A stretch of 64,000 bases of DNA from Escherichia phage vB_EcoM_WFC (NC_048195.1), one strand, 5' to 3'. Numbered from the stretch's first letter, positions 1 through 63,470 are shown. The notes: generated by a model from the sequence alone, not told the origin. Numbers and translations: made by a program.

Positions 1-34
1 GCTAGACGTTTCAACTTCCAACTGCACCATCGAT

Positions 35-286
35 TCACAGTTCATCTCCAGATTGCAAAATAAGACCCGCATAGAGGATTGCCAAAGCCAAAGGTGCACC
101 ACCACCAGCCTCTCTATTCTCTTTGATTTGAAGAGTATCCTTAAGGAATTGCAACTGAACGTTGAATTCATTTTCAATTCCAAGAACTCCAGCCAATTCT
201 TTTACAGAATCTGCATATGCCTTGTCTAGCAATTCTTTTGGTACTGTTAAAGTCAATTCATTTGCCATTTTCTTTCCACTCCACAA
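35..286 (-). CDS. hypothetical protein (83 aa)
   Basis: Minus-strand ORF at window start, co-directional with two neighbours; no recognisable motif. Confidence 0.3.
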   Translation of the reverse strand: MWSGKKMANELTLTVPKELLDKAYADSVKELAGVLGIENEFNVQLQFLKDTLQIKENREAGGGAPLALAILYAGLILQSGDEL

Positions 287-479
287 ATGTGCTGCCGCTT
301 GTTTCTCTATTTAGCAGGTATCTGCCGCGCATTCCATGAAGGCTGAATTCAACCGTCGATGGATTAGATTTTGAAAGCCATATAGGTTGTCCGTCGAATG
401 GACCGCCTATGCATGTGTATTTAGCTTTTGGCTCACTCCTTTTGGGCCGTTTTGCCCGCTCTTTGATTGATAGTCTCAT
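258..479 (-). CDS. hypothetical protein (73 aa)
   Basis: Minus-strand ORF; its stop region overlaps the next ORF by 29 nt, so the true start may be internal. Confidence 0.3.
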   Translation of the reverse strand: MRLSIKERAKRPKRSEPKAKYTCIGGPFDGQPIWLSKSNPSTVEFSLHGMRGRYLLNRETSGSTFVEWKENGK

Positions 480-694
480 CAGTCTTCACCTTGAGATTCC
501 AGACAAGTAAGGACAAGCCACGTCATCGGAAGAATCAAAACCAGAGAAATGAGGGACCAGATAGACCAGCACAAGATGACAGACTTGAATGTGTGAACGT
601 CGCCAAACGCAGCAGTAAAACAGAATCCCATCACAAATGCAATAGCGGTGGAATGGTTGTCTATGGCTTTTATGGCACGGTCGATGAGTTTCAT
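479..694 (-). CDS. small membrane protein, two predicted TM helices (holin-like topology)
   Basis: 71 aa with two hydrophobic stretches (AIAFVMGFCFTAAFG and ILCWSIWSLISLVLILPMTWLVL). Confidence 0.4.
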   Translation of the reverse strand: MKLIDRAIKAIDNHSTAIAFVMGFCFTAAFGDVHTFKSVILCWSIWSLISLVLILPMTWLVLTCLESQGED

Positions 695-768
695 ATTACC
701 TCCGGTTTTGAGTTAATATGATTATAACGCAGAGTCTCAGAAAGGCAAACTTTTTGTGAATTTTAATC

Positions 769-795
769 AAAAAAATGGCCAGAAAAAATCTGGCC
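769..795 (-). terminator. putative intrinsic terminator on the minus strand
   Basis: Inverted repeat GGCCAG/CTGGCC (777-782 / 790-795) with a 7-nt loop; the A-run at 769-775 is a U-run on the minus-strand transcript. Confidence 0.35.
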
Positions 796-841
796 GAAAG
801 ATCACCCTTTATCCACTACTAAGCTGGAATCATAATTTTAC

Positions 842-871
842 TTGATATAGCTTGTACAAGCAAACTATAAT
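842..871 (+). promoter_or_regulatory. sigma70-like promoter candidate upstream of the large terminase gene
   Basis: TTGATA (842-847), 18-nt spacer, TATAAT (866-871); the -10 abuts the ATG at 872, implying a leaderless start or a downstream start codon. Confidence 0.3.
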
Positions 872-2332
872 ATGAATAAAATATTAACACATAATTGGAA
901 ATTCATGTACCAGTTGAATCCTGCTTTAAAAGAAGTCTGGAAGACAAAAGCGCGATACAAAGTAATATACGGCGGTCGTGCATCTTCCAAATCGCATGAT
1001 GCCGCTGGTTTTGCTATTTATTTGGCGGCAAACTTCAAATTAAAATTCCTTTGCGTTCGACAATTCCAGAACAAGATTTCTGAATCTGTATATACTCTAT
1101 TAAAAGATAAAATAGAGATTTCTGATTTTAAAGATGAGTTCAATTTATTAAAGAACTCTATCGAGCATAAAAGAACTAAATCTGAATTTCTATTTTACGG
1201 TATCGCACGTAACGTTGATGAAATTAAATCAACGGAAGGTGTTGATGTTCTTTGGCTGGAAGAAGCGCACGCACTTACTGAAGAACAGTGGGACATTATT
1301 GAGCCGACAATCCGTAAAGAAGGGTCAGAAATATGGATCATCTTTAACCCTGATGAAGAGGCCGATTTCGTCTACCAAAACTTTGTTATGCGACCGCCGA
1401 AGAATGCCATAGTTAAAAAGATAAACTGGCAAGACAACCCATTCTTGTCGCAAACAATGCTGGATGTTATCGCAGGCATGTACGAGCGCGACCCGAAAAA
1501 GGCAGAGCACGTTTATGGCGGCGTGCCGAAGACTGGCGGCGATAAATCTGTAATCAACCGTGCATTCGTTAAGGCCGCTCTTAATCTCCACAAACACCCT
1601 ACGCTGGGCTGGAGTTTGTCAGGGTCTAACCGTATAGGCTTTGACGTAGCGGACGATGGCGACGACCTTAACGCCACTGCATTCGTCACAGGAAACGTAT
1701 TGCGCGGCATCAAGACGTGGGAAGGTCTGGAAGATGAATTGTTGAAATCGGCAAGCGGAGTTTGGAAAGATGCGCTTACATTTGGCGCTTCTATAACTTA
1801 TGACGCCATCGGTGTCGGCGCTTTTGCTGGTTCAAAATTTGATGAACTAAACGAGTATGCAATACATGAAAATCCATCATTTCCAAGAATCGAATTTAAT
1901 GCGTTCAACGCGCAAGGGTCTGTTGATGATCCTGATGACGTTTTTCTTGAGCTACCACACGTTGAAATACTCAATAAAGACCATTTCGCAAACATAAAAG
2001 CGCAAAAGTGGACTGAAATTGCAGAGAGATTCAGAAAGACATACGAATATGCAACTGGGCAAGCCGTATATCCGACTGATGAATTGATTTCAATCGACAC
2101 CGATGGTATACCGGAACTTGGGATTCCAGCTTGGACTACTGAAGAGATTGAGACGTTTCTTTTTGAGATGTCAGCGCCGCGCAAAGATACGTCTGTTCTT
2201 GGCAAGTTCAAAGTTGAATCTAAAAAGGATATGGCAAAGCGTGGAGTCAAATCACCTAACAAAGCGGACGCAGCAATCATGGCATTGATGAAACCAATCG
2301 TTGCAGCATCCGGCTTCTTCTCTAACCTTTAA
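872..2332 (+). CDS. terminase large subunit
   Basis: 486 aa; N-terminal Walker A-like GGRASSKS about 35 residues in, followed by a nuclease-like C-terminal half; first gene of the structural block. Start could instead be the ATG at 905. Confidence 0.9.
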   Translation: MNKILTHNWKFMYQLNPALKEVWKTKARYKVIYGGRASSKSHDAAGFAIYLAANFKLKFLCVRQFQNKISESVYTLLKDKIEISDFKDEFNLLKNSIEHKRTKSEFLFYGIARNVDEIKSTEGVDVLWLEEAHALTEEQWDIIEPTIRKEGSEIWIIFNPDEEADFVYQNFVMRPPKNAIVKKINWQDNPFLSQTMLDVIAGMYERDPKKAEHVYGGVPKTGGDKSVINRAFVKAALNLHKHPTLGWSLSGSNRIGFDVADDGDDLNATAFVTGNVLRGIKTWEGLEDELLKSASGVWKDALTFGASITYDAIGVGAFAGSKFDELNEYAIHENPSFPRIEFNAFNAQGSVDDPDDVFLELPHVEILNKDHFANIKAQKWTEIAERFRKTYEYATGQAVYPTDELISIDTDGIPELGIPAWTTEEIETFLFEMSAPRKDTSVLGKFKVESKKDMAKRGVKSPNKADAAIMALMKPIVAASGFFSNL

Positions 2333-2335
2333 CAA

Positions 2336-2575
2336 TTAAAGCATTCCGTGCTGAAGGTCTAGTTTTCTTGCAGCAAATGACCTGGCACGGAATCGCTTAC
2401 CCGCTCTTACTGCCTGCCGAATCTTCTTTTGCATACACTTACGGTCAAAATCGTTGCGGTCAACGGCTTCGAGCAAATCCCGACGCAAAGCACCTAGTGT
2501 CGCCTTTTCGGATAATTCTACGCCCAGCGCGGCTGCAACGTCTTTCAAAACATCGAGTTCGGTTAACGTTCTCAT
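2336..2575 (-). CDS. small basic protein with N-terminal helix-extension-helix (Rho_N/SAP-like) motif
   Basis: 79 aa; LTELDVLKDVAAALGVEL pattern then Arg/Lys-rich tail; second gene of a two-gene minus-strand unit inside the + strand structural block. Confidence 0.4.
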   Translation of the reverse strand: MRTLTELDVLKDVAAALGVELSEKATLGALRRDLLEAVDRNDFDRKCMQKKIRQAVRAGKRFRARSFAARKLDLQHGML

Positions 2576-2988
2576 TTGATGATCCCCTTGATGTCTGATT
2601 CTGCCATAAAGATTGGAGTGCCGCCGCCAGGAACAATCGAGCGCGTTACTTTGTCGAACATATCGTTCTCTTCAACTTGAATACGATAAAATTTATTTTT
2701 GGATGAAGATGGGCACAATCCAATAAATTTACCAATGCCGCGAACGCATTCATCTTCAAAGTATACTGTTTCACCTTGAATGGATTCGATGTTTTCAACC
2801 GGATACACCTTGCGACCTAAAAGCCATTCATCCATGGTCGCCTGCAACACGTTTCGCGCATCCAAAATCCAAGGGTCAACTGTGGCACCTTCATATCGCG
2901 CAGCAGTGGCTTTTGCCAGCTCTTCATATTCGCATACGTTTACTACTTCGCCTTGATGAAGGACGACAAATACAATTGTTGTGCTCAT
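2572..2988 (-). CDS. hypothetical protein (138 aa)
   Basis: Overlaps the downstream ORF by 4 nt (operon-like); AT-rich promoter-like region at 2989-3117. Confidence 0.4.
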   Translation of the reverse strand: MSTTIVFVVLHQGEVVNVCEYEELAKATAARYEGATVDPWILDARNVLQATMDEWLLGRKVYPVENIESIQGETVYFEDECVRGIGKFIGLCPSSSKNKFYRIQVEENDMFDKVTRSIVPGGGTPIFMAESDIKGIIK

Positions 2989-3150
2989 TTCAATCTCCTT
3001 TCGTTTGGTTAACTAAAATATAACTCAAAATGATACAAAAGCAAAATATTTTATGAACTATTTATGATTACTATACATATCATTTGCTTACAAACACATG
3101 AATATTTATAATATAGATTGATTCCCTTTCACTGTCAGGTGGCGTTAACA

Positions 3151-5526
3151 ATGAAAATTCTTGGCATAAAACTCTGGGAGAAGACGCAACCAGAAGCCGA
3201 ACCAGCGGAGATGCCGCCAGGCGACCCATTGGCACCGTTTGAACGCCTGGAAAGGCGCGGCAGCGGTCAACGCTGGGATAAGACCGAAAGCAACCGCCCG
3301 ACCTTTAAAACCGTTGATGACTTTCCTTTATATGAGCCTGATATCAACGGGGACGGTGTTGCAATCATCAAAGGTCGCTCAGTAGATTCAGCAACCGTAT
3401 CCAAAAAAGTTATGGATAATGCTTTGAAGAACATCAGTTCAGAAGGGCAGGTTAATCCATACACAGTACCTATTCAGTTGCAAAACTGGTACTTATCGCA
3501 ATCATTTATCGGATATCAAGCTTGCGCCATCATCGCGCAGCACTGGCTGGTGAACAAGGCTTGTTCCATGGTAGGCCGCGATGCGGTCCGTAAAGGCTGG
3601 GAAGTCAAATCCAGTTCTGAGTCCGAATTATCAGTGCAGGCCAGCGAACGCCTAAAGCAAATTGATAAAGAATTTAATATCAAAGAGCACTTAGTTGAAG
3701 CCGAACGATTCAAAAATATTTTTGGTATCCGCGTCATCATATTTGATGTGCGTAGCGATGACCCAGAATACTACAGTAAACCTTTTAACATTGATGGTGT
3801 GACAAAGGGGTCTTATAAGGGGATCATTCAGGTTGACCCTTATTGGATGATGCCATTTCTGACGTCTGAAAACACCGCCGACCCTGCTTCACAGCACTTT
3901 TATGATCCAGAATACTGGGTGATCAGCGGACAACGTTATCATCGCAGCCACCTCATCATATTGCGCAACGATGAGCCAGCTGATATTCTTAAGCCGACTT
4001 ACATCTACGGCGGCATTCCTCTAACTCAGCAGATTTATGAACGCATCTATGCCGCTGAACGTACCGCTAACGAAGCACCATTGTTGGCGATGTCTAAACG
4101 TACAACGACACTACGGACCGACGTTGACAAGGCGATTGCCAATGAGCGGTCTTTTGCCGAACGCCTGATGATGTGGATTAAGTACCGCGACAACTATGCT
4201 GTTAAGGTACTTGGCCAAAAAGAAGAAATGGACCAGTTCGACATCAACTTGTCAGACTTCGACAGCATCATCATGAACCAGTACCAGCTGGTGGCCGCAA
4301 TCGCAAAAGTTCCGTCGACCAAACTGCTTGGGACTTCGCCAAAAGGCTTTAACGCCACTGGTGAATTTGAGATGGTCAGCTATCACGAAGAGTTGGAAAC
4401 GTGCCAGCAGCATGACCTGACAAAAATTCTCGACCGCCATTACAAAATCCTTCTCAAATCAGAAGGGGTGGAAGTCGACGTTAAGGTTGCATGGGAACCA
4501 GTTGGCTCACTTACTGCTACTCAACTTGCAGAAATCAACGACAAGCGAGCTAACACTGGCAAAACTCTCATTGATGCTGGCGTCATTTCTCCTGATGAAG
4601 AGCGCGACCGCATCAAAGACGACAAAAACAGCGGTTACAACCGTCTGCCGGAAGATGCAGCAGAAGAAACCCCAGGGATGTCTCCAGAGAATATGGCATT
4701 GCTTGGCAAGTCTGCTGGTGAAGTCCTGCAAGGTAAGGCTGATATTGAACAGGCAAAAGCTGATGTCGTTAAGATGGGCGGCCAGTTCTATAGCGAGACT
4801 GGTATTATGCCAGAAGGTGCCGCGCGTGGTGAGTTGGCGGAAAACCCTGACAGAGCACCTGTCGAAATTAACATGGACGATACCGATGATGAATCAAACC
4901 ATCAGGTTGATGTCCTAACGCAGTTGAAAGAAGGTCTGGAGGGTATTGCGGATTACTACCTGAAAGAAGGTCAGGATGTGGATTTTGACCCTCAAAAAGA
5001 TTCACGGTCGGTGCAGCCGTCTACCCTTCCAAGCGTCAAAGGTAATGTCGTAAACTTACGACACAACGTTGGCGAGATGGACGCAGCATCATTACCTAAG
5101 ATGAAGTTGCACGGAATGATTCTTGGGATTGAGAATCCTCGCAACAGCATCCGTAGAGGAAATAGCCTTGACGGTGAATGGGCAGTCAAGATGCCGCACC
5201 ACTACGGATTCATCAAAGGCACCAAGGGCGCGGACGGCGATGAAGTCGACTGCTTTGTTGGCACAAATCTGAAGTCGCCGAAGGTCTTTATCGTGAACCA
5301 AAACGATAACTACTCTGGCGAGTTCGATGAACACAAGTGCATGCTTGGATTCGATTCAGCAGAAGAAGCAAAAGAAGCTTATCAGGCATCATTTGGTAAC
5401 GGTTGGAACGGATTCGACTCAATCCACGAATTAGATGTGAACTCATTCAAAGAGTGGTTGAAGGGTGATTGCTCTCAAGCATACGGAGCACTCAATAATC
5501 CTACTAATTCACCGAAGCAAGGTTGA
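3151..5526 (+). CDS. portal protein with C-terminal inorganic-pyrophosphatase-like domain
   Basis: About 790 aa immediately after the terminase gene; ATG at 3151 is preceded by AGGTGG (the ORF track starts at TTG 3118). The final ~120 aa contain HYGFIKGTKGADGDEVDCFVG, which fits the family I pyrophosphatase signature D-[SGDN]-D-[PE]-[LIVMF]-D-[LIVMGAC]. Confidence 0.65.
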   Translation: MKILGIKLWEKTQPEAEPAEMPPGDPLAPFERLERRGSGQRWDKTESNRPTFKTVDDFPLYEPDINGDGVAIIKGRSVDSATVSKKVMDNALKNISSEGQVNPYTVPIQLQNWYLSQSFIGYQACAIIAQHWLVNKACSMVGRDAVRKGWEVKSSSESELSVQASERLKQIDKEFNIKEHLVEAERFKNIFGIRVIIFDVRSDDPEYYSKPFNIDGVTKGSYKGIIQVDPYWMMPFLTSENTADPASQHFYDPEYWVISGQRYHRSHLIILRNDEPADILKPTYIYGGIPLTQQIYERIYAAERTANEAPLLAMSKRTTTLRTDVDKAIANERSFAERLMMWIKYRDNYAVKVLGQKEEMDQFDINLSDFDSIIMNQYQLVAAIAKVPSTKLLGTSPKGFNATGEFEMVSYHEELETCQQHDLTKILDRHYKILLKSEGVEVDVKVAWEPVGSLTATQLAEINDKRANTGKTLIDAGVISPDEERDRIKDDKNSGYNRLPEDAAEETPGMSPENMALLGKSAGEVLQGKADIEQAKADVVKMGGQFYSETGIMPEGAARGELAENPDRAPVEINMDDTDDESNHQVDVLTQLKEGLEGIADYYLKEGQDVDFDPQKDSRSVQPSTLPSVKGNVVNLRHNVGEMDAASLPKMKLHGMILGIENPRNSIRRGNSLDGEWAVKMPHHYGFIKGTKGADGDEVDCFVGTNLKSPKVFIVNQNDNYSGEFDEHKCMLGFDSAEEAKEAYQASFGNGWNGFDSIHELDVNSFKEWLKGDCSQAYGALNNPTNSPKQG

Positions 5527-6386: not shown

Positions 6387-7307
6387 ATGACGATACCAAT
6401 CAGCACGTTTCCTCTATCTGGACAAACGCCAGTATTGCCTGCTGTATATGCTAACGGTTTGGCGATTGTTTCAGAATTTACATCCGATAAAAACCTGATT
6501 GTTCCATTGAGTCCGCCATTGGCGTCTGGATACAATTCAGTTGGTCAATTCTTTATGATCGGTAATGATGGCGATTCTACCAGCAAGCCGAATCTGACAC
6601 TTTCAGTTCCCAAAATGAACATAACAGACGTGCAGACTGGTTTAACTGCATCTACAATCACCATCGCTTTTGGAGAAGCAGTGATTATAGGAATGGAGTC
6701 TGGAGGGTCAAAGAATGCTGTCGCCGTTAAAGTGGTCAAATCAAGCGGCAACCAATACACGTTACCAGCGGCAACGGCTTCTGTTCTCGGCGGCGTCAAA
6801 ATAGGAAGCGGAATAAGCGTCGCAGGTGACGGTACAATTAGCGTTACTCAATACTCATTGCCGATTGCGTCAGCATCTACTTTAGGCGGCGTAAAGGTCG
6901 GTACAACTCTATCAATTGATGGTTCCGGTGTGCTTAACGCAGCGGAAAGCACCGTCCAGAATGCCACGAACAGTGTTAGCAATCCTCCAACCACTTTGGT
7001 TAATCTGGCGACCTTAAACCTTCCTGCAGGAAAGTGGCTTGTGACGGCAAGTCAGTTGACTGTCGCGACAGCAGGAATTCAAGCGAATACCGGAATTACA
7101 GCCAAATTGTCAACAAGCGATTCAGATATTACGGATGATGCATTTACGATGTCAGCTGGCATTCGGGCTGCAGGTCGTTTCGGCGGCAATATTCCAACAA
7201 AGATAATCACTCTTGCCGCGCCTGGCAACGTGTATCTAAACTATCAATGCACAGAGGCGTTGACATCTACCGTTTACGGACAGATCACCGCAATCAAGCT
7301 GAACTAA
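6387..7307 (+). CDS. structural protein with tandem fibre-like repeats
   Basis: RBS GAGGT before ATG 6387; internal repeats TLPAATASVLGGVKIG / SLPIASASTLGGVKVG typical of phage fibre or decoration proteins. Confidence 0.55.
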   Translation: MTIPISTFPLSGQTPVLPAVYANGLAIVSEFTSDKNLIVPLSPPLASGYNSVGQFFMIGNDGDSTSKPNLTLSVPKMNITDVQTGLTASTITIAFGEAVIIGMESGGSKNAVAVKVVKSSGNQYTLPAATASVLGGVKIGSGISVAGDGTISVTQYSLPIASASTLGGVKVGTTLSIDGSGVLNAAESTVQNATNSVSNPPTTLVNLATLNLPAGKWLVTASQLTVATAGIQANTGITAKLSTSDSDITDDAFTMSAGIRAAGRFGGNIPTKIITLAAPGNVYLNYQCTEALTSTVYGQITAIKLN

Positions 7308-7317
7308 AGAGGAAGTT

Positions 7318-7455
7318 ATGCAAAAGATTATTCAGTCACGTTATGTTAAAGTGCGAAATATTAATTGCAACTCTTTGCTTTCTTGGAAATGGGCTGTTTA
7401 TGACTCAATGCTGATTGGCGTTTTAGTTGCAGGAGTGCTATTTAATATCCACTGA
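7318..7455 (+). CDS. small hydrophobic protein (45 aa)
   Basis: ATG 7318 preceded by AGAGGAAG RBS; C-terminal hydrophobic segment MLIGVLVAGVLF; not in the ORF track (below its size cutoff). Confidence 0.35.
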   Translation: MQKIIQSRYVKVRNINCNSLLSWKWAVYDSMLIGVLVAGVLFNIH

Positions 7456-7496
7456 ATTCATCGGCAAAGGATTGCCGCGAGTTTTATACGTATAAT

Positions 7497-7760
7497 GACG
7501 TATCATACGTATCAAGTAAGTTATTGTTTTCAAAAGAATCTTACGGATGATACGGATGATACGCGTTGCCGCCGTACTATATAGGAATTCAAATAAATTA
7601 ATTTAAAATTATATATCTAATTTAATTTTATTTTTTTATAAACTCTTATATATGAAAAGTATCCGTATCATCCGTATCATCCGTAGCACACCAGTGATAG
7701 CGCGGCTTATACACCGATACGGATAAAAATACGCCTCATTTTATCCGTATCATCCGTATC
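7497..7760. repeat. iteron-like CCGTATCAT repeats in both orientations flanking an AT-rich core (region A)
   Basis: ACGTATCATACGTATCA (7497-7516), CTTACGGATGATACGGATGATACG (7540-7563), ATCCGTATCATCCGTATCATCCGTA (7661-7685), TATCCGTATCATCCGTATC (7742-7760); AT-rich core about 7575-7650. Homologous to region B at 60018-60347. Confidence 0.6.
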
Positions 7761-7818
7761 ACACTAATAAAGGCGCGGCTATATCGGTTGTTATACATAT
7801 TCAAACCATAATTATTGT

Positions 7819-7847
7819 TTGCCTAAGTTTTTTTCATTAGATATAAT
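7819..7847 (+). promoter_or_regulatory. sigma70-like promoter upstream of the scaffold/capsid genes
   Basis: TTGCCT (7819-7824), 17-nt spacer, TATAAT (7842-7847), then GAGGGTGG RBS and ATG 7871. Confidence 0.45.
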
Positions 7848-7870
7848 ACACAATACTTATTTGAGGGTGG

Positions 7871-9289
7871 ATGCGAATGCAAACGGCACGCGAAATTGAC
7901 AAAAATGGATTCTTGACGATTATGGGTTGTCCAATTTCGTCATTTGGCATTTTTGATTATTCTGCTGGTCAAGTTGGTCTTGATGGTGATCCGAATCGCA
8001 TCGTAAAAGTCTATCGCCCTGAGTCAGCGGTGAAAGACCCCGAAGCGATAGATTCATTCAAAAATATCCCTTTCATCGACAATCACGAAATGCTTTCTGG
8101 ATTTGAAGGTGATGAGGATAACACAGCACCCGAAGAGTATGGAGTTGATGGCGTTCTGACTGGCAATGTTTATTATGACAAGCCATGGATGCGCGGCGAC
8201 CTTAAAGTGTTTAGCCGTCGTCTGAAGAAGGCCATTGATTCTGGAAAGGTTGACTTGTCTTTGGGCTATGACTGTGAATTCATCATACAGTCTGGAGAGT
8301 TTGACGGGCAGCCGTATGAAGTGGTGCAGACAACTCTTCGCGGCAACCACATTGCTCTCGTGGACGTTGGTCGAGTACCAGGTGCACGGGTGCTGGATGG
8401 TCGTTGCTTTGACCATCTTTGTTTGACGACTGTAACACCATCCAACGAGGATTTAGACATGCCAAAACCGTTAAAAGGTAAAGCGCGTGATAATGCTGTT
8501 GAACAGCTGAAATCACTGATCCCTGCGCTCGAACAATTTCTGAACGAAGAGAGTACTGAAGCTGCTCATCAGGATGAAGTTGAAGTGAAAGCAGAAGAGA
8601 AGGACTCAACCGAAAATCGTGAAGAAGTAATGGTTGATCCAGAAGTCAAGGCAGAAGCAGAAGAAACCCCAGAAGGTGAAGAGAAGTTTGAAGTTGAAAC
8701 TGAATCTCACGCTGGCGGCGAACTTCCGCAATTGATCAGCCAAATCGAAGCACTTATTGCAAAACTGAAAGGTGGCGCGGTAGGTGATGAAGAAGAAGTT
8801 GAAGCCGAAGTCAAAGACGAAGAAGTTGAAGTCAAGGCTGAAGATGTATCACCTTGCGACAAAGCTGAAGATGTGGTTAGCGGCCTGCAAAACAGCAACG
8901 TAAAGGGGGCTTCGGTCGAAAAAGATGACAAACCGACAAAAGCGGCGAAAGCGTCGCCAGGTCCAGCAAAAGGGGAACACTCAATGGCATCTGATTCAGC
9001 AGTTGCTGCTTTCTACGCTGATTCTGCTCGTAAGAATAGCCTCTACCAGCGCCTGTCTAAAGTTGTTGGTGCCTTTGATCATGCAACTATGGACTCCAAG
9101 TCCGTAGCGAAATATGGCGCTAAAAAGTTAGGCTTGAAGTGCGTTGATGGTGCTGAGTTTGACGTGGTGGATAATTATCTGCGCGGCGTTGAGCACGGTC
9201 AGAAACAGCGTGTAGTCGCAAAACAAAAGGCCGCTGCGGATTCTGCAGCAACTGACGAAGCATTTGAAGCTTGGTTGAAAGGGGAATAA
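7871..9289 (+). CDS. scaffolding-like protein (N-terminal domain plus acidic Glu/Lys-rich region)
   Basis: 472 aa; conserved-looking N-terminal 190 aa followed by long EVKAEE-type acidic low-complexity segment; sits between head morphogenesis and capsid genes. Confidence 0.55.
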   Translation: MRMQTAREIDKNGFLTIMGCPISSFGIFDYSAGQVGLDGDPNRIVKVYRPESAVKDPEAIDSFKNIPFIDNHEMLSGFEGDEDNTAPEEYGVDGVLTGNVYYDKPWMRGDLKVFSRRLKKAIDSGKVDLSLGYDCEFIIQSGEFDGQPYEVVQTTLRGNHIALVDVGRVPGARVLDGRCFDHLCLTTVTPSNEDLDMPKPLKGKARDNAVEQLKSLIPALEQFLNEESTEAAHQDEVEVKAEEKDSTENREEVMVDPEVKAEAEETPEGEEKFEVETESHAGGELPQLISQIEALIAKLKGGAVGDEEEVEAEVKDEEVEVKAEDVSPCDKAEDVVSGLQNSNVKGASVEKDDKPTKAAKASPGPAKGEHSMASDSAVAAFYADSARKNSLYQRLSKVVGAFDHATMDSKSVAKYGAKKLGLKCVDGAEFDVVDNYLRGVEHGQKQRVVAKQKAAADSAATDEAFEAWLKGE

Positions 9290-12503: not shown

Positions 12504-13079
12504 ATGACAGATGTCGACCTGATTGACATGCTGGCAACGCGAATTGAAGAAGGTCTGGCGGCGTATAGTCGTGCAGACCTTTCTGCTGTTCCGGTCCAGA
12601 AAAAATACCAACCGACTCAACAGGGCATTCCGACTGGTGATCAGATTTGGTTTAACCTTTTATTCTCAGTCCCATTCGGTTGGTCAATGAGAAAGAATGA
12701 ATTTGTCAATGATGAATCTCAATTCGTTAATGGCAAATTTAAAGATATTGAAGATCAGATATACGCAACACGTTTTCAAATTAGCGGCTTATTTCCAGAA
12801 GTTCCTGGCAATCCAGAAAAGCCTACGGCTAATGACGTTTTGACTTATTTAGCAAGATTCATAACCCACAAGGCTAATTTGAGGGATTGGTTTAAAAGGC
12901 ATCAAGCTTCAGTATATAGAGTCGACATGAACAACAATGAAAAGTTCTATGACGACATGTCTCAGTTTGAATCGTTTCCTTCTTTTGATTTGGTAATCCT
13001 TCACAGAAACGCAATTTCAATTTACACGCCTGCTGTTGCAAGAGCTGTTAATAACGATTTAGGCGATATTCCGGTGTGA
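12504..13079 (+). CDS. hypothetical protein (191 aa)
   Basis: ATG 12504 preceded by GAGGTG; late array. Confidence 0.5.
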   Translation: MTDVDLIDMLATRIEEGLAAYSRADLSAVPVQKKYQPTQQGIPTGDQIWFNLLFSVPFGWSMRKNEFVNDESQFVNGKFKDIEDQIYATRFQISGLFPEVPGNPEKPTANDVLTYLARFITHKANLRDWFKRHQASVYRVDMNNNEKFYDDMSQFESFPSFDLVILHRNAISIYTPAVARAVNNDLGDIPV

Positions 13080-47029: not shown

Positions 47030-47132
47030 TTCAGGCGACCTTTGTTAGTGCGGAAATATTTTTTGATAGTATAATTGCAGATATAGTATAAAGCAAAGTA
47101 AATCGAAATTGTGAACTAAATGGTAAATATTG

Positions 47133-47160
47133 TTGACTTTGTATCACTCAATATTATACT
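47133..47160 (+). promoter_or_regulatory. sigma70-like promoter for the + strand early/replication operon
   Basis: TTGACT (47133-47138), 16-nt spacer, TATACT (47155-47160), in the divergent intergenic region 47030-47189. Confidence 0.5.
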
Positions 47161-47189: not shown

Positions 47190-48272
47190 ATGGCTAGTTT
47201 AAGAGAAGAAGCAAAAATAATTGAAGAGTTTTTAACAGAACTCCAAAGAGGCATTCCAGAAGATGAGCGCGTCATGACGGTGTTTGCTCCTGAAGCAACG
47301 GTACAGACCGACGAGCGCGGCAAGAAGATTAACAGCAGCTTCTGGCCTAAGCCTTGGAAGTTGGGCAAGCCGCTCATGCAGCACCAAAACGGCTATGCTT
47401 GCATCAGTTCAATGCGTAAGTCTCCCAACCCAAAGACGGGTGAGATGCGATACTGGCGTACAGAGTCTGCCTTTGGTCACGGCATGGCGATGATGGTTGA
47501 TGACATCGGTCACGGTAAAGGGTCCAAAGGTGATTTAGATTTGGAATTCTTTTTCGAGCGACTGAAGCCGACTGTCATCGTCGAGACTTCACCGAACAAC
47601 CACCAGCTTTGGTACTTCTTTAAAGAACCGATTGACCATCTTATTCAGTTCAAAGCGTTCCTTGGGTCTTTCGTTAACATGGTACTCAAGAAGGGCGGCG
47701 ACAACACGATTAAAGACGTAACGCGCGTGGGTCGTGTTCCTGGGTGCATCAATAACAAGCGTGTGACTCACGACGGCCCCTATAAATATGTCGATGAGAA
47801 CGGCGACCCGTTCCGCTGCCGACTTGTCCATGCAGACTACTCCTTGCGCTACACCATCGAAGACATTTGTCAGGCATTTGGCTTTCACGTCGTCATGCCG
47901 CAAAAGCGTGAGATTCAAATTGACGTCGATGAATACAAGTATGATGCTGTTTGGTATAAAATAGCCCAGCAGATTCTAGCGCGCAACAAGATGGGTGAAG
48001 GGTCTGATGGCGACGTCATCGAGAATATGTCAGGCAAGTGTCGCATAATCTGTCCTTGGGGTGAAGAGCACACCAACGGCGACCCGTATGGCGCTTACTT
48101 TCGCGGCCCTATCCCTGGTGCAGAACATGAATTTGTGTTCGGTTGCGCCCACGACTGCCACCGGAAAGGGGAAGGCAAGAAAGGTTGGACTGCTTTTGTT
48201 GAAGCAATCGTCATGCCTTATATTGAGAATCAACTTGACATGATAAATCGTCGTGCAGGTGGCATAAAATAG
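47190..48272 (+). CDS. DNA primase-like protein (archaeo-eukaryotic primase / Prim-Pol-like) with C-terminal Cys/His cluster
   Basis: 360 aa; acidic MMVDDIGHG and ETSPNNHQLWYFF resemble AEP motifs; C-terminal CPWGEEH ... CAHDCH zinc-binding-like cluster. Confidence 0.55.
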   Translation: MASLREEAKIIEEFLTELQRGIPEDERVMTVFAPEATVQTDERGKKINSSFWPKPWKLGKPLMQHQNGYACISSMRKSPNPKTGEMRYWRTESAFGHGMAMMVDDIGHGKGSKGDLDLEFFFERLKPTVIVETSPNNHQLWYFFKEPIDHLIQFKAFLGSFVNMVLKKGGDNTIKDVTRVGRVPGCINNKRVTHDGPYKYVDENGDPFRCRLVHADYSLRYTIEDICQAFGFHVVMPQKREIQIDVDEYKYDAVWYKIAQQILARNKMGEGSDGDVIENMSGKCRIICPWGEEHTNGDPYGAYFRGPIPGAEHEFVFGCAHDCHRKGEGKKGWTAFVEAIVMPYIENQLDMINRRAGGIK

Positions 48273-49581: not shown

Positions 49582-51252
49582 ATGTCAATTAATAATGACA
49601 ATCTTCCAGAGGATACAGGTGATGAATTTGGTGCAATCTTTGACGAAATTCAAGATGCAGGCGTTTCGGAAGAAATGCAGGCAGCAGAGCAGCAAGGCAC
49701 CAGAGCTAAAATCAGCCTTCAACATAAAGCTGTTGAAAAAGATTCAGAGCGCATGGAATGCTACGGTGAAGAAGACTTGGTTGAAAGAGCACGCTTGCTC
49801 GCCTCACTTCAGGTAATCAAGTTCCCTCACTACAAGCCTACCAAAGATGACTTCGTTCTACAGGCAGACCGGACGAGTGACATGAACCGTTATGCGGTTT
49901 TCGACGCGTTGTTTGATAAGGGAAGTGGCGTTGTTCCATTCCCTCACAAAGATACTTTTCGTGGGCGCTTAGTCGACCATCGCGGCGAAACATTCACTGA
50001 CCGTACCTTGGAAGTCACAGAGATAGTTGCCGCTGTCGACGCAGCAGGGTTGTCCAACCCAAACTCACGTCAGGTCGCTCAATCCTATAAGGAATGGGCC
50101 ATGCGTTATCAGCGCGACGACCTGATGGACTTCTTCTACAAGAAGCTGCCTGAATGGGACGGTACTGCGCGCATCGAGAAATACCTTATCGAGCTATTCC
50201 GACCGTTCGATACAGAGTTAAACCGACAAATCGGTGTGTATTTTTGGCTATCGCTCTACAACCGCCTGACCAACCCTGGCTGTCAAGCGCCAATCTCCAT
50301 CGCGCTCATCGGCGGCCAGAACGCAGGGAAGAGTTATTTTAGCAAGCTGCTTTGCGAAGCTATTATGAACGACCGCCACGCAACACCGATTCCGTTGAAC
50401 TTAGCCGCGCAAAACTTCAACCCGTTCTTGCGAGCTATCACGGGTCGCTCGATTATCGCGAACGTCGGCGAGATGACAGGCTTTAAAAAGGCCGACATCG
50501 AAAACATGAAAGCATTCCTGACTAAGACGGAAGATGACCTGGACTTCAAATTTGAAGATACGCAGGTTAAACCACGCCAGTGGATTGCTATCATGGACGG
50601 CAACGAATACGCAGGCATGCAGCGTGATGACACGGGCAACCGTCGTGTGTATCCTATCTTTGTTGGCCAACTCGCTGACAAGGACGGGCAACCGAACTGG
50701 TCGAAAGACTTCCAAGCTGACCTTTCCACTTTGAAAGAAGACGTTTGGCAGCTTATGGCTGAGTGCGCTGCGTGGATGGAGAAGCACGGCGAAGCAGGCT
50801 ATAACGCGTTTGTTGGTGAAACATCTCGCATGCTTACTGAGTTCAGTAAAAACGAAATGGAACGCGCTCGCGGCGTTATCCGTGATGAGATGGTTGATAA
50901 CGACCTTGTTGAAGTCGTCATCACCGCGCCTTATGACCGACATCACAGCGGACGCTGGCACATCACCAGTGGTGCTATTGCTATGGGATTCAGAGCGAAG
51001 TGCGGCAAGTCGCCTTTCTCTCGTACCCTTGCGCCACACATGTCGAAGCTTGGTTTTGAGCCTGCGACCTATCGCAACCAGCGCGGTTACTTTACGCCGC
51101 TGATTAAGAATGAAGCAGGGGAATACATTTCTGATTTGATGACCATCTTAGCGTATCTTATCCGCGATGAGTCTGACCCTGAAGATATTGAATTCTTGAA
51201 GAAGGTTATTGAGCGTAAACGTTCTTTGGGAAGAGATAAGGATGAATTCTGA
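49582..51252 (+). CDS. VirE-family P-loop NTPase (primase-associated helicase-like)
   Basis: 556 aa; Walker A IGGQNAGKS; AGGAGG RBS; position next to the primase gene. Confidence 0.7.
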   Translation: MSINNDNLPEDTGDEFGAIFDEIQDAGVSEEMQAAEQQGTRAKISLQHKAVEKDSERMECYGEEDLVERARLLASLQVIKFPHYKPTKDDFVLQADRTSDMNRYAVFDALFDKGSGVVPFPHKDTFRGRLVDHRGETFTDRTLEVTEIVAAVDAAGLSNPNSRQVAQSYKEWAMRYQRDDLMDFFYKKLPEWDGTARIEKYLIELFRPFDTELNRQIGVYFWLSLYNRLTNPGCQAPISIALIGGQNAGKSYFSKLLCEAIMNDRHATPIPLNLAAQNFNPFLRAITGRSIIANVGEMTGFKKADIENMKAFLTKTEDDLDFKFEDTQVKPRQWIAIMDGNEYAGMQRDDTGNRRVYPIFVGQLADKDGQPNWSKDFQADLSTLKEDVWQLMAECAAWMEKHGEAGYNAFVGETSRMLTEFSKNEMERARGVIRDEMVDNDLVEVVITAPYDRHHSGRWHITSGAIAMGFRAKCGKSPFSRTLAPHMSKLGFEPATYRNQRGYFTPLIKNEAGEYISDLMTILAYLIRDESDPEDIEFLKKVIERKRSLGRDKDEF

Positions 51253-59192: not shown

Positions 59193-59725
59193 TGGGTAAC
59201 GATGCAGGATGGGGCAAGCCGCGATACTCAAAACTTGCCCACTACTTTGACAACGGCGAGCAAATCAGCTTGTGCGGTAAATTCAACAAAGGCAATACAG
59301 AGTTGACCGATGCTCAAGAAATGGAATCAAGTTTTACAATTGGTGATTGCTCTAAGTGCAGAAAGGCATTATATGAGTTATTAACTCTAAGGGGATTGAA
59401 AGCGGCAAAATCAAGGGATGAATGGGTCATCAACGTCTGTGAAGGGAATCCAGAATTAATGGATGAATTGCTGAAAACAGATGCCGTTAATGCCATTTTT
59501 AAAAGGCATTATAAAACTTGTATGCGTTACAAGATGAATGATAATATTATTTTTATGGTATTATCTTATTCAAGGAGCACAATGGACGTCAAAAAGCTTC
59601 GACAATATCGTCACAAGGTAATGTGTGAATTGCGCCGTTTAGGAGTGACTGTTGATAATAATGTCATTAAAACGGAGTTAAAGAAGCGTGATAAAAGGAA
59701 TGGTGACTGGAAGGTCAGCAGATAA
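59192..59725 (+). CDS. hypothetical protein (177 aa)
   Basis: AAGGAGG RBS; last gene of the early array. Confidence 0.45.
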   Translation: MGNDAGWGKPRYSKLAHYFDNGEQISLCGKFNKGNTELTDAQEMESSFTIGDCSKCRKALYELLTLRGLKAAKSRDEWVINVCEGNPELMDELLKTDAVNAIFKRHYKTCMRYKMNDNIIFMVLSYSRSTMDVKKLRQYRHKVMCELRRLGVTVDNNVIKTELKKRDKRNGDWKVSR

Positions 59726-60017
59726 AGAACGTTGATTTGTGTGTTTTGAAGAATGGAATGTGTGCAATGGGTCGCTTTATGCGGCCTTTTGTTGTTTGGG
59801 TCGTGTTTTGCGATGGAATAATTATGAGGTTGTGTTTTATTTATTAATTGTGCGGAAATATTTAGAAATATATATAAACAGGATTGTTAATATTTTAATA
59901 GTGTATGGCTATTGGTCCGTGGTGTTCGTTAGATTCTATCTATGGATTGGATTTTCTTGGGTCGTGAAACGTGGTTTTGAACACATTTGATACGCCTAAA
60001 ATACGGTTAAAAATTAA

Positions 60018-60347
60018 GCGTATCATGGCTGCAGGCCGCGCCGTTCCTGGATTCCTATTTTCAAAAGTGGTACACCCTTACGTCATGATACGTCATGGTT
60101 TTCTATCCGTAAGAGTGTACAGCCCTTGCCGCGCCTGGCTTGTACATTAATCTTACGGATGATACGGATAAAACTGAGCATCGTTATATATAGAATTCGA
60201 AAAATTAATTAACTCCATTTTAAAAACATTTATATTAATTTTTTTCATATCCTCATACTTATGTTAATTTATATATTTAACGTATTATCCGTAAGATATA
60301 AGTAAAAACAAAGACTTGCGGCAATACGGATGATACGTCATGATACG
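60018..60347. repeat. iteron-like TACGGATGATACG repeats flanking an AT-rich core (region B)
   Basis: CGTCATGATACGTCATG (about 60080-60097), CTTACGGATGATACGGATA (60152-60170), ATCCGTAAG copies near 60104 and 60287, AATACGGATGATACGTCATGATACG (60323-60347); AT-rich core 60180-60280. Confidence 0.6.
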
Positions 60348-60512
60348 CTTCGACCAGCCAGCAGCGGCTAAGTCATTGATTTGCATAACAAGCGGCAAAA
60401 GGGATGGATTTCTTTTATACGTATCAAACAGTACACCACGCACCACGGTCCGCAATCCACGCAGCATTATGATTTGTGTACTTTTATAGCCATAATGAAC
60501 ATCAATCTGCAC

Positions 60513-60541
60513 TTGAATATAATGTCCATCCATTGTATAAT
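60513..60541 (+). promoter_or_regulatory. sigma70-like promoter upstream of the TerS-like gene
   Basis: TTGAAT (60513-60518), 17-nt spacer, TATAAT (60536-60541). Confidence 0.45.
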
Positions 60542-60561
60542 TCACACTATTAATTTGCACT

Positions 60562-61050
60562 ATGGGATTTTGCACTATGAGTCAAGATTATGTAGCGATG
60601 CCTGAAGACTTTGAAGACCCGCGATTCGCAGAGCACAATCAGGCTTTATTCGATGAGTTCATTGACCTTGTTATTCAGGGCCATGACATGCGCGCAGCTT
60701 TTGCACTAGTATTTGGAATGGAAGTTGCAACGGATAACTACACTGGCCAGCGAATCCTTTGCACGCAACGCAATCCATACTACAAGATGCGCTTCAAAAA
60801 GCGTATGGAAGAGATGCCACTCAAGGATTTGTGGAGCGTAAAAGGTGCAATTCACAATTTGGTCAAGCTTGTGCGTGATCCAGAAGTCGCGGCGTCAGCC
60901 AAGCTTAATGCTATTCGTGAACTGAATATCATCTACGGCATCACGATGATTGATGAAAACGGCAATAGTAAAATGGGCCGTTCCATGGACGATTTCTACA
61001 AGGATTTCGGAGAGGCGGCCAAAGAAGGCGAGCAATTTTCCCGCCACTAG
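60562..61050 (+). CDS. putative terminase small subunit (HTH-type)
   Basis: 162 aa; GHDMRAAFALVFGME ... QRILCTQRNPYYKMRFKKRMEE and later KLNAIRELNIIYGI resemble small-terminase patterns from memory; alternative ATG at 60577. Confidence 0.45.
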   Translation: MGFCTMSQDYVAMPEDFEDPRFAEHNQALFDEFIDLVIQGHDMRAAFALVFGMEVATDNYTGQRILCTQRNPYYKMRFKKRMEEMPLKDLWSVKGAIHNLVKLVRDPEVAASAKLNAIRELNIIYGITMIDENGNSKMGRSMDDFYKDFGEAAKEGEQFSRH

Positions 61051-61052
61051 CC

Positions 61053-61448
61053 AATTTGCACTATAAAACGGCCCTAGAACACATTTTCTCCACTTCTAGG
61101 GCCATCGGTAATACGACGGGGAAGGTTGCAACCATAAACGCGTTAGAAAGTGTATTATTATAAGTCATCTTTTAGTCACTTTACGTAACAATTTACGACC
61201 TTCAACCGTCCAATCGAACGACTCCACCAGCAGATTCGCACTATAACCTAAGACGATGCGCCCTTTCTCGTTATCGACCCGCCAACAAGTCTCGAATAGC
61301 ATTCGATTTGCACTATTAACTATTGCCGCAACTCGCGTAGGATAAGCGCAATTTGCACTATGGTCGTAAAGGGATAAGGTGCGACCACTTCCGATGGACA
61401 ACGTAGCGATGAGAATAAGCGTATTCATAAGCCACCAATTTGCACTAT
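61053..61448 (+). repeat. array of same-orientation (A)ATTTGCACTAT motifs
   Basis: Copies at 61053-61064, 61233-61244 (TTCGCACTAT variant), 61305-61316, 61350-61361, 61437-61448; further copies at 60552-60563, 60569-60578, 61734-61745, 61748-61759, 62021-62032. Confidence 0.6.
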
Positions 61449-61478
61449 GAAAAGCGACCCCGAAGGGCCGCCATTCGA

Positions 61479-62105
61479 TTAGATAATCTGGAAGGTATAG
61501 GACTTGTTGCCGAACTCGAAGTTCAAGCGTCCAGCTTCTTTAAGCTTCATGCGGAAGCGAATGTGCTTGCTATCCGGTAAGCCCAGCGCGGCGAACGCTA
61601 CGCGGACCGATTTGAACTCGCCTACACCCTCGACCATAACGCCGTTACGGGTAAGACGCTTTTGCGCCACTTCCTTATTATCCCAACTTTTTGCAATGCC
61701 TTCGCTATTCGAACGGCGATGGGAAGGAGTTCCATTTTGCACTACGCAATTTGCACTATCGTTTAAACCGCTCTTAACGAAGGCTTCATACTCTTCGTCG
61801 GTCATCGCGTCGAGTTCTTCCTGCGTCGGCTCGGCCTTTTTAACGACCGCACGCGCCTTATGCGTTTTTACATCGCTGGACACTTCCTCGCGAGACTTCG
61901 CGTCGGGGATGGGCGATTCGTTGGACGGCTCATCGAGCGCGTTTAAGGACTCGATTAACGCTATTACGCGAGTCTCGGCGGTCCGGCGGTCCGCAAATTT
62001 TTTAATCGGCTTCGAACCGGAATTTGCATTATAAAATGCAACGAGGTCGGCGGTCTTAGTTGCGATAACGTCGCCGCTAGTCGAGAAACGATTTAAGCTA
62101 ACCAT
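61479..62105 (-). CDS. hypothetical protein (208 aa)
   Basis: Minus-strand ORF in the CpG-rich block; second gene of an operon driven from about 62570. Confidence 0.45.
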   Translation of the reverse strand: MVSLNRFSTSGDVIATKTADLVAFYNANSGSKPIKKFADRRTAETRVIALIESLNALDEPSNESPIPDAKSREEVSSDVKTHKARAVVKKAEPTQEELDAMTDEEYEAFVKSGLNDSANCVVQNGTPSHRRSNSEGIAKSWDNKEVAQKRLTRNGVMVEGVGEFKSVRVAFAALGLPDSKHIRFRMKLKEAGRLNFEFGNKSYTFQII

Positions 62106-62185
62106 AATGAACTCCTATTTGTTAGGGCGCTAGGCGCGAAAGAATTTTATTAAAGCGCCGCGCACGACGCTCTAAAAATCCTCTC

Positions 62186-62500
62186 TTACTCTTCGTCATC
62201 TTCGATTAATTCGAGGGCGAAGGCGTAAGCTTTGCTATCGTAATTAACTAAAACGGCGAGTTCGAACTCGTTAATAAACGCCGTTTTACCGCATAAATTT
62301 AATTCCGCATCGACTTCGAAGAATCCGTTTTCGTCGCGCTCTAAGCGAGAAGCAGCGAGTTGCTCGATTACCGTCGCGTCGTTAATTTCTTCGCCTAAGC
62401 GAACGCCGGAGAATTTCGCGAGAATTTCGCCGTAAGTAAGCGTAACGCCCTGGACTTCGGCGGTTGCGTTTTCGAGGGTAAAGCGGGTAACGATAGCCAT
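62186..62500 (-). CDS. hypothetical acidic protein (104 aa)
   Basis: AGGAG RBS upstream on the minus strand; CpG-rich codon usage. Confidence 0.45.
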   Translation of the reverse strand: MAIVTRFTLENATAEVQGVTLTYGEILAKFSGVRLGEEINDATVIEQLAASRLERDENGFFEVDAELNLCGKTAFINEFELAVLVNYDSKAYAFALELIEDDEE

Positions 62501-62568
62501 AATAAACTCCTAGTTGGGAGAGGCGTTAACGACCTATTCGTTAACTCATCCCGTCCCGATATGAGTAC

Positions 62569-62596
62569 ATTATAATATAGTGTAGAAAAAAGTAAA
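62569..62596 (-). promoter_or_regulatory. sigma70-like promoter (family copy 1, minus strand)
   Basis: On the minus strand: AAAAAGTGC TTTACT, 16-nt spacer containing TACACT, TATAAT. Confidence 0.5.
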
Positions 62597-62640
62597 GCAC
62601 TTTTTCGATAAAAATGCGATAAATTATTTTATCTTTTTTC

Positions 62641-62668
62641 TTTACTTCTTCGTACACTCGCGTATACT
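62641..62668 (+). promoter_or_regulatory. sigma70-like promoter (family copy 2)
   Basis: TTTACT (62641-62646), 16-nt spacer TCTTCGTACACTCGCG, TATACT (62663-62668). Confidence 0.5.
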
Positions 62669-62724
62669 TGTTTATATCGAGACGGGCGATGGCCCTTTCT
62701 TCTACTAGCATCGGGAGCTTTATT

Positions 62725-63027
62725 ATGACTACTTTAATCTCTTCCATCCTTACTTACGACGAAGACCGCTTAACCGTTCGCTCTCTTATCGCCGCCGTTA
62801 ACGCGGAACTAGAATCTAGCGCCATTAAGGTCCGCGCGGTCGCCTTCATCGGCCTTTCCTTCGACGATATGAAGTATGCCGAACGTAGCGCCATCCGCTT
62901 CGCGAAGACCGACGACGAAGCCGTTACCCTTATCGAGACGGTTACGCCGCGCGGCGAAGCGTTAATTATCGTCGAGTATATCGACGTAGAAGGCGATAAA
63001 TCTTATAAACATTTTATCGCAGAATAA
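62725..63027 (+). CDS. hypothetical protein (100 aa)
   Basis: ATG 62725 preceded by GGGAG; the ORF-track TTG start at 62668 lies inside the promoter; CpG-rich. Confidence 0.45.
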   Translation: MTTLISSILTYDEDRLTVRSLIAAVNAELESSAIKVRAVAFIGLSFDDMKYAERSAIRFAKTDDEAVTLIETVTPRGEALIIVEYIDVEGDKSYKHFIAE

Positions 63028-63039
63028 CGAAAAAAGTGC

Positions 63040-63068
63040 TTTACTTCTTCGTACACTAAGACTATAAT
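63040..63068 (+). promoter_or_regulatory. sigma70-like promoter (family copy 3)
   Basis: AAAAAGTGC TTTACT (63040-63045), 17-nt spacer TCTTCGTACACTAAGAC, TATAAT (63063-63068). Confidence 0.5.
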
Positions 63069-63135
63069 GTTTTATATCGAGAGGGGATGAGGTAGCGAAT
63101 AGGTCGCTACCCTCCCGACTAACTAGGAGAATATT

Positions 63136-63426: not shown

Positions 63427-63446
63427 TACCCATCCGTTACTAATAG

Positions 63447-63470
63447 GCCGCGCTTAGTCGCGGCTTTTCT
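63447..63470 (+). terminator. intrinsic terminator
   Basis: GCCGCG CTTAGT CGCGGC hairpin followed by TTTTCTT. Confidence 0.6.

Follow-up and report, generated by a model that had tools for sequence, protein, structure and literature searches.

Paired iteron modules with AT-rich cores in Escherichia phage vB_EcoM_WFC as candidate replication origins

Region A upstream of the head protease gene

We analyzed a stretch of 64,000 nucleotides of the genome of Escherichia phage vB_EcoM_WFC (NC_048195.1), here called the window, for a repeat-rich intergenic region in its head-gene cluster (region A) and for a second such region (region B), both of which are candidate replication origins built from iterons and an AT-rich core. 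The DNA belongs to a Wifcevirus, an E. coli myophage, and the 7 kb around region A is 95–96% identical to that of relatives with E. coli and Shigella as hosts (Bas98-101, WFH, FEC19, ECML-117, vB_Eco4M-7 and Mansfield). Members of Wifcevirus are ~68-kb myophages whose terminal repeat is ~3.7 kb long (Korf et al., 2019, PMC6563267), and the Pseudomonas Pbunavirus group is distant kin to them (PMC11990801).

Region A (7456-7870, 415 nt) is the clearly non-coding portion of a 563-nt gap (7308-7870), which follows a head-fiber-like gene ending at 7307 and directly precedes the head maturation protease gene. The original prediction had described a 560-nt gap between a fiber-repeat structural gene and a scaffold gene. 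The gap itself stands, but the downstream gene encodes a DUF2213 protease rather than a scaffold protein, and the gap includes an open reading frame (ORF) of 45 aa.

Within region A, five arrays of a 9-bp iteron, CCGTATCAT (with the more general core CGTATCA), alternate in orientation around an AT-rich core and are followed by a sigma-70-type promoter (Table 1). Tandem copies had been predicted at 7661-7685 and 7742-7760, an inverted block at 7540-7563, an almost pure AT core of ~70 nt and a sigma70-like promoter at 7819-7847; all of these were recovered, the repeats as exact or near-exact units within a few bases of their predicted limits. A plus-strand array (7488-7515), a minus-strand unit (7714-7722) and a conserved GCGGC[A/T] box had been overlooked. 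The boxes at 7473 and 7567, to the left of the core, are in reverse orientation, and those at 7702 and 7775, to its right, are forward.

Iterons were strongly clustered in the two regions. CGTATCA occurs 23 times in the window, eight times in region A, seven times in region B and eight times in the remaining 63 kb, with ~8 occurrences expected by chance for the whole window. For CCGTATCAT with at most one mismatch there were 23 matches, against 11.2 ± 3.1 in shuffled sequences. When a relaxed unit definition was applied to 400-nt windows, region A contained 16 units and region B 11, and all others had at most five; the other late operons within the window have no iterons. The two cores were also the most easily melted segments by nearest-neighbor stability, with 7577-7677 in the core of region A ranking as the least stable of all 100-bp duplexes in the window (z 4.6) and 60185-60285 in the core of region B as the second least stable (z 4.5). 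The next least stable segments lie upstream of the portal gene (3014-3114), in the first 0.3 kb of terL (1089-1189; terL was placed at about 905-2332 via Bas100) and in the gap where the Dda-like helicase block and the primase gene diverge (47058-47158). None of them has an iteron.

A homologous region ~52 kb away, including a shared segment, had also been predicted, and pairwise alignment bore this out. Local alignment of regions A and B gave a score of 63 (shuffled sequences 21.7 ± 2.5, maximum 36) over ~150 nt across the core, taking in the shared segment TATATAGGAATTC / TATATAGAATTC. The order and orientation of the arrays are identical in both regions, (+)(-) core (+)(-)(+). On this sequence evidence, region B is a true paralogue of region A.

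The inner arrays of region A form a perfect 22-nt inverted repeat (7542-7563 vs 7664-7685) with 100 nt between its halves, and the hairpin potential of the single strand is strong (-29.1 kcal/mol, z -6.35). Together with the presence of two copies in the genome, this would also fit a non-functional repeat or a mobile element resembling a miniature inverted-repeat transposable element, in which terminal inverted repeats of 22 nt surround AT-rich filler that has been copied twice. Target-site duplications flanking the two copies were not found, however, and the arrays extend well past the inverted repeat, with polar boxes that are conserved.

No Rfam family reached its gathering score when covariance models were run across the whole window. 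BLASTP detected no similarity between the 45-aa ORF and the ORF at the same place in Pbunavirus LMA2.

Table 1. Positions of the features of regions A and B and of associated genes in the window.
Feature	Position	Strand	Description
45-aa ORF	7318-7455		hydrophobic in its C-terminal half; part of the annotation in Wifcevirus records; immediately before region A
Terminator-like hairpin	7462-7477	+	ends the head-gene transcription unit upstream of it; includes TGCCGC box 7473-7478
Outer left iteron array, A	7488-7515	+	ACGTATAAT-G-ACGTATCAT-ACGTATCAA
Inner left iteron array, A	7538-7564	-	2.5 to 3 units of CCGTATCAT: exact at 7547-7555, GCGTATCAT at 7556-7564, degenerate at 7538-7546
Polar box TGCCGC, A	7567-7572	-	reverse complement of GCGGCA; abuts the core on the left; other copies at 7473 and 7214
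AT-rich core, A (putative DNA unwinding element)	7578-7657		80 bp, 9% G+C
Inner right iteron array, A	7661-7689	+	two exact units (7663-7671, 7672-7680) and one degenerate (7681-7689)
Polar box GCGGCT, A	7702-7707	+	right of the core; second copy at 7775-7780
Single iteron, A	7714-7722	-	CCGTATCGG
Outer right iteron array, A	7743-7762	+	CCGTATCAT (exact, 7745-7753), then CCGTATCAC (one mismatch, 7754-7762)
Sigma-70-type promoter, A	7819-7847	+	TTGCCT-17-TATAAT; 10/12 matches; precedes protease gene
Head maturation protease gene	7871-9289	+	DUF2213; directly downstream of region A
RepB'-type primase gene	47190-48272	+	PF16793; upstream of rep
Candidate initiator gene (rep)	49582-51252	+	VapE-like SF3 helicase, P-loop (PF05272)
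Skewed stretches flanking region B	59650-59950, 60430-60470		counterparts: MyoSmar 3700-3900; LMA2 2780-2940, 3410-3560
Region B overall	about 59960-60580
Region B, left half	59987-60172		iterons 59987-60027 (- then +), 60079-60097 (-; 10-bp variant TACGTCATGA twice), 60104-60114 (+, single), 60150-60172 (-, inner array); TGCCGC box at 60127
AT-rich core, B	60185-60285		holds the physical left genome end
Direct terminal repeat	60217-63919		~3.7 kb; delimited via three deposited relatives
Region B, right half	60280-60427		iterons 60280-60297 (+), 60323-60348 (-), 60414-60427 (+); GCGGC[A/T] boxes at 60318, 60364, 60392
Sigma-70-type promoter, B	60513-60541	+	TTGAAT-17-TATAAT; 10/12 matches; precedes terS
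terS, small terminase gene	60580-61050	+	protein matches PDB 7uxe (phage E217 TerS), E 9e-34

Region B, the genome end and transcription

The independently deposited records of Mansfield, WFH and Ro157lw all begin at window position 60217, in the middle of the AT-rich core of region B (...AATTAACTCC/ATTTT..., the slash marking the genome end), a left genome end that the original prediction had missed. In the Mansfield record a direct terminal repeat is predicted by PhageTerm at 1-3673, and the WFH and Ro157lw records carry the repeat at both ends. It stops at window position 63919 in all three, which gives base-exact boundaries at 60216/60217 and 63919/63920. The repeat contains terS and several small genes, 9 kb from terL. 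At its other boundary (63780-63919) there are no iterons, only unrelated repeats, and no genome end is annotated in region A in any record examined. Inside the right boundary (63590-63665 and 63780-63880) we observed two copies of ATCGCGTAAGTCGTTGTTTTATA, units of AATCATTAGC / AATCATTATGC and two copies of TGTAACG, and these repeats may belong to the right-end cutting signal.

Because region B has the left genome end at the boundary of the terminal repeat and precedes terS, a packaging role must be weighed. The arrays would then be bound by TerS or by a packaging cofactor, with region B as the left-end cut site and region A as a second, uncut site serving synapsis or titration, a second-site role of the kind proposed for the T4 gene 16 and gene 19 sites. 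The pac sites of P1 and SPP1 have short repeats on both sides of the cleavage region. In addition to the three Wifcevirus records that start at the same base, the genomes of Pantoea phage Kyle (repeat in the record), Serratia phage MTx (PhageTerm) and MyoSmar begin within the core of module B, terS lies immediately downstream, and the cut-site context AAATTAACTCC/ATTTTGAAAAC is kept, along with the TGATACG core, in a 72.5-kb uncultured relative whose Rep is 75% identical. We regard the link of region B to the genome end as solid in four lineages (Wifcevirus, Kyle, MTx and MyoSmar). A packaging site as the general explanation of the modules nevertheless appears unlikely: the core of region A is homologous to that of region B, yet an end in A is not reported, and a terminase cut needs no 100-bp tract of about 10% G+C. 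Three further points from relatives are given below.

Both modules also lie between a terminator-like hairpin and a sigma-70 promoter with 10/12 matches that drives late-function genes. The arrays could accordingly be operators at which a phage regulator times the strong sigma-70 promoters that serve the protease-scaffold-capsid operon (A) and terS (B), and the AT core could work as an UP-like or bendable element. The PB1-like phage JG024 has been described as having AT-rich boxes and conserved motifs between its genes, for which the authors suggested a role in transcription (PMC3008698); phage 14-1, a relative, has phage-specific promoters with a CTGGG-core motif that need extra factors (PMC10914365). 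The geometry fits this poorly, as the spacing between the last iteron and the -35 hexamer is 57 nt in A but 87 nt in B, and the arrays stretch as far as 350 nt upstream. A dyad-symmetric arrangement about a 100-bp core, with outward-facing boxes, is atypical of known activator and repressor sites, and the iteron is restricted to two sites in the genome, the other late operons being without it. Neither a fixed short distance to the hexamers nor presence at co-regulated promoters, as would be expected of operators, was found. The protease promoter of Xanthomonas phage Carpasina lacks a module altogether, and the only module of that phage precedes small ORFs. Transcriptional control is hence, like packaging, an improbable primary function of the modules in our judgment.

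Several other observations concern the vicinity of region B. Its left part (59960-60150 vs Mansfield 7900-8121 and WFH) is dimorphic in the genus, with around half of the genomes carrying a non-homologous segment whose inner array and flank (CTTACGGATGATACGGATGATACGCGTCGCCGC) are nearly identical to the left arm of region A; this near-identity suggests gene conversion between A and B. In several deposited records short hypothetical ORFs that overlap the iterons and the AT core are annotated within module B (60153-60248, 60285-60575 on the minus strand and 60340-60489 on the plus strand; Bas100_0090, Bas100_0091 and CPT_Mansfield_001), but because of the repeat structure these are probably not genes. 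A G/T-rich stretch (GC skew up to +0.67) to the left of module B and a C/A-rich stretch to its right are kept across genera (Table 1), and tandem repeats occur near such stretches, (CCCACGA)n in Mansfield and (CCAACCCAGCA)n in Carpasina. Two like-oriented copies of the 14-mer TTGCCGCGCCTGGC are present, one at the head-fiber gene's 3' end (7213-7226) and the other to the left of the core of region B (60126-60139).

Conservation of the modules and a candidate initiator

The two-module layout was also present in Myosmarvirus, Pbunavirus, Pantoea phage Kyle and uncultured relatives, further relatives having been found by scanning viral contigs with protease and TerS profiles. Syntenic genera with modules at the same two positions share only 30–55% protein identity, and the motifs have diverged in step in each genome. 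In Serratia phage MyoSmar (TerS 36% and protease 54% identical), modules occupy a 470-nt gap before the protease gene and the region before terS; in both of them the AT core is flanked by TACTTTTCG(TTTTT), with further shared sequence, and the end predicted by PhageTerm falls in the terS-proximal one. In Pseudomonas phage LMA2 (Pbunavirus), both places have homologous gaps, of 0.5 kb and 1 kb, that contain GGTAATTT and CCGGTAA repeats. In the relatives from the contig scan, the core was located about -350 to -220 relative to the start of the protease gene, with iterons of opposite orientation on its two sides.

The iterons are lineage-specific but common to modules A and B of each genome: TACTTTTCG in MyoSmar, GGTTATT in Kyle, GGTAATTT in Pbunavirus, and TTACCGGGA, AGTTGCGG and GGAAAGTAG in uncultured lineages. 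Upstream of the protease gene, GGTTATT was found in Kyle, AACTAAGGA in a 72.4-kb contig, and GCAAGATCG, GGAAAGTAG (11 copies) and GTTGCGG in others. At least eight lineages have different iterons, and the iteron of A recurs in B wherever both modules were available. Rep and TerS are inseparable as the binder by this co-variation, since all proteins diverge together across the sampled lineages.

Synteny and co-variation exclude a chance origin of the modules. A mobile element was likewise rejected, given the conserved synteny in genera of such low protein identity, the co-diverged motifs and the absent target duplications, and we regard it as highly improbable.

The LMA2 modules have GC-rich arms flanking the core, CTACTGCCGCGAG / CTCGCGGCAGTAG in A (12690-12945) and TTAGTGCCGCG / CGCGGCACTAA in B (2990-3215). 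These arms differ between the modules and yet are complementary within each, a pattern to be expected if they pair as a hairpin or cruciform, or if conversion acts inside a module.

Every module examined (24 modules from about 13 lineages) carries a GCGGC[A/T] box pointing away from the core, independent of genus. To the left of the cores 33 boxes were in reverse and four in forward orientation, and to the right one was reverse and 43 were forward (Fisher's test 4e-17). Genome-wide polarity of GCGGC[A/T] or GCCGCGC words, as for a primase or translocase signal, was not found. Relative to base composition, no 7-mer is more over-represented than GCCGCGC / GCGCGGC, with 65 copies (about 15x expectation; e.g. 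at 7215, 7700, 7773, 60035 and 60128), mostly within genes and on either strand, and these 65 sites showed neither an extended consensus nor positional polarity.

A candidate for the protein that binds the iterons is a VapE-like helicase of superfamily 3 (SF3), encoded in the window downstream of a gene for a RepB'-type primase (Table 1). Searching the PDB by sequence returned a sole relative, 7pds (E 4e-11), which is the DNA complex of Rep1 from the Staphylococcus aureus pathogenicity island SaPI1 (PMC9371898). An AlphaFold model of the helicase (44 homologues; predicted local distance difference test score 85.9) had 7pds as its best structural match, near full-length over ~480 columns (E 7e-17; template modeling score 0.6 on target), followed by NrS-1 and the poxvirus D5/E5 helicases. 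In this model, residues 436-504 are predicted to follow the helix-strand-helix-helix-strand-strand order of a winged helix. The SaPI gene order is pri-rep-ori, with the origin immediately downstream of rep; the iterons flank a central AT-rich region in opposite orientation and are bound by the C-terminal winged helix of Rep, which self-loads without other factors (PMC9371898). Pfam and PHROGs searches of the small proteins of the terminal repeat, which sought an alternative DNA-binding protein, gave nothing informative.

The position of module B in relatives is consistent with this gene order. At 11 related loci the rep homologue ends 0.9–1.4 kb before terS, and the core of module B lies ~0.4–0.5 kb past the rep stop codon. 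The single module of Carpasina, with GCGTAT repeats and 19% G+C in the core, comes directly after the genes for primase and helicase (pri-rep-module) and 3.7 kb before terS, and there is no module A at the protease gene. This arrangement argues against a packaging site, as do two further findings: Pbunaviruses, which are reported to be headful-packaged and circularly permuted without defined ends (PMC12390725), still keep both modules, and the TerS of E217, a homologue of the terS product, showed no appreciable DNA binding in vitro (PMC9611059). On the strength of Pbunavirus retention, the Carpasina module attached to rep and the non-binding of E217 TerS, we consider a primary function as an origin more likely than one as a packaging site.

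With moderate confidence, then, regions A and B are probably two paralogous copies of a Rep-type origin, each made of iterons and an unwinding element; Rep would bind the iterons, the core would melt, and synthesis would begin there. The original prediction had likened the architecture both to replication origins and to activator-controlled late promoters; the first likeness gained substantial comparative support, and the second fits less well. In the proposed mechanism the SaPI-Rep1-like SF3 initiator-helicase would recognize the iterons via its C-terminal winged helix, assemble on both sides of the core, melt it and load itself, after which the RepB'-type primase would prime synthesis, possibly at the polar boxes. 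Region B would be the ancestral copy, because B is directly downstream of pri-rep in most relatives, and region A an extra copy placed between the head-fiber and head-protease genes.

A number of points weigh against an origin. Wifcevirus has ~8.5 kb of small ORFs between rep and region B, and region A is ~26 kb from rep around the circular map. The phage unit is 9 bp and tandem, unlike the 5–6-nt iterons of SaPI. Cumulative GC skew has its global maximum, not its minimum, at 60035; because the skew tracks gene orientation, with its maximum at B, we take it to be uninformative on origin position. Putative origins of Pbunavirus have been published at GC-skew minima in the replication-gene block and not at the modules (PMC12390725). 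For region B a packaging function is equally natural, as it precedes terS and its core has the genome end in four lineages with direct terminal repeats, and the near-consensus sigma-70 promoters just downstream of both modules make an operator function possible.

The link between region B and the genome end goes beyond a simple origin model, and implies either a second, packaging function of B or an end formation coupled to the origin, for which the phiOL and phiOR elements of T7 offer a precedent. We tentatively raise the latter, as a rather doubtful possibility: in the phages of this group that have terminal repeats, a Rep-type origin would be the site of left-end formation, within its unwinding element once melted; ordinary genome replication would fall to region A, and the RepB'-type primase would take the GCGGC[A/T] boxes as its start signals. 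Coupling might come about if the terminase cuts DNA opened by Rep, or if synthesis primed at the origin in B duplicates the 3.7-kb terminal repeat before cutting.

Wifcevirus and Pbunavirus phages are widely isolated and therapeutically used. If true, the origin assignment would give an entire phage family a concrete pair of origin and initiator (iteron and Rep winged helix) open to testing, usable for phage engineering and rebooting and for phage-dependent replicons, and may help to explain the very fast replication reported in Wifcevirus. The genome end in the core of one module, as seen in the four terminal-repeat lineages, makes the formation of long direct terminal repeats accessible to experiment in a tractable E. 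coli phage.

Comparison with known origins and packaging sites

In the searchable literature no replication origin is assigned to Wifcevirus or Pbunavirus, and only the AT-rich boxes and motifs of JG024 are on record (PMC3008698). The modules most resemble the origins of SaPIs and other phage-inducible chromosomal islands, which likewise have short iterons on both sides of an AT-rich center in opposite orientation and an SF3 initiator-helicase whose C-terminal domain is a winged helix; the phage protein is a fold match of SaPI1 Rep1. SaPIs share the order pri-rep-ori with most of the phage relatives, and the iteron is lineage-specific in both. Region A has at least two opposed iterons on each side, a meltable AT center, a cognate Rep with a predicted winged helix and a lineage-specific iteron; a location right after rep is not seen in this window, but is seen for module B at the 11 loci and in Carpasina. 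Unlike in SaPI, the module sits in a virulent 68-kb myophage rather than a satellite, is present in two copies (one within the head-gene cluster and one holding the genome end), has an extra conserved polar GCGGC[A/T] box and, in Wifcevirus, is not adjacent to rep.

The Bacillus phage SPP1 reportedly has two distant homologous origin-like regions, oriL and oriR, in each of which repeats bound by the initiator adjoin an AT-rich segment. One of these regions is close to the genes for replication and the other lies in the late region; the initiator is G38P, helicase loading needs G39P and G40P, and headful packaging starts from a separate pac site. Two distant homologous regions with repeats and AT-rich DNA are thus common to both phages, but G38P is unrelated to the phage Rep. 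Satellite phage P4 has two cis regions, ori and crr, 4.5 kb apart and both required, that share one short iteron present in either orientation and recognized by the C-terminal domain of its primase-helicase. P4 resembles the present case in having two cis regions with a common iteron and differs in the fusion of primase and helicase in one protein, in the spacing and joint requirement of the two regions, and in having no link to a genome end.

The oriV of the IncQ plasmid RSF1010 combines iterons, an AT-rich segment and two opposed priming signals, ssiA and ssiB, with a RepB' primase; its 20-bp iterons lie on one side only, the ssi signals are 40-nt hairpins, the initiator is RepC and the helicase RepA. 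The phage primase is of the same RepB' family (PF16793), and the outward GCGGC[A/T] boxes, as putative priming sites, resemble the layout of the ssi signals. Unlike in IncQ, the phage iterons lie on both sides, and the initiator and helicase proteins are different from RepC and RepA.

The pac sites of P1 and SPP1 resemble region B in having short repeats on both sides of the point of the genome end, but region A has no known end. In T7, the origin-like elements phiOL and phiOR adjoin the terminal repeat and have been linked to concatemer processing. Region B shares with them the position of an origin-like element at a terminal repeat, but the T7 elements are promoters for the phage RNA polymerase and not iteron arrays. 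In contrast to the P1, SPP1 and T7 sites, the modules of the Pbunavirus relatives persist without defined ends. As judged from sequence comparison, the element is best filed as a candidate iteron-plus-unwinding-element origin of an SF3 initiator-helicase, unusual in its duplication into the head-gene cluster, its polar box and the genome end in its core.

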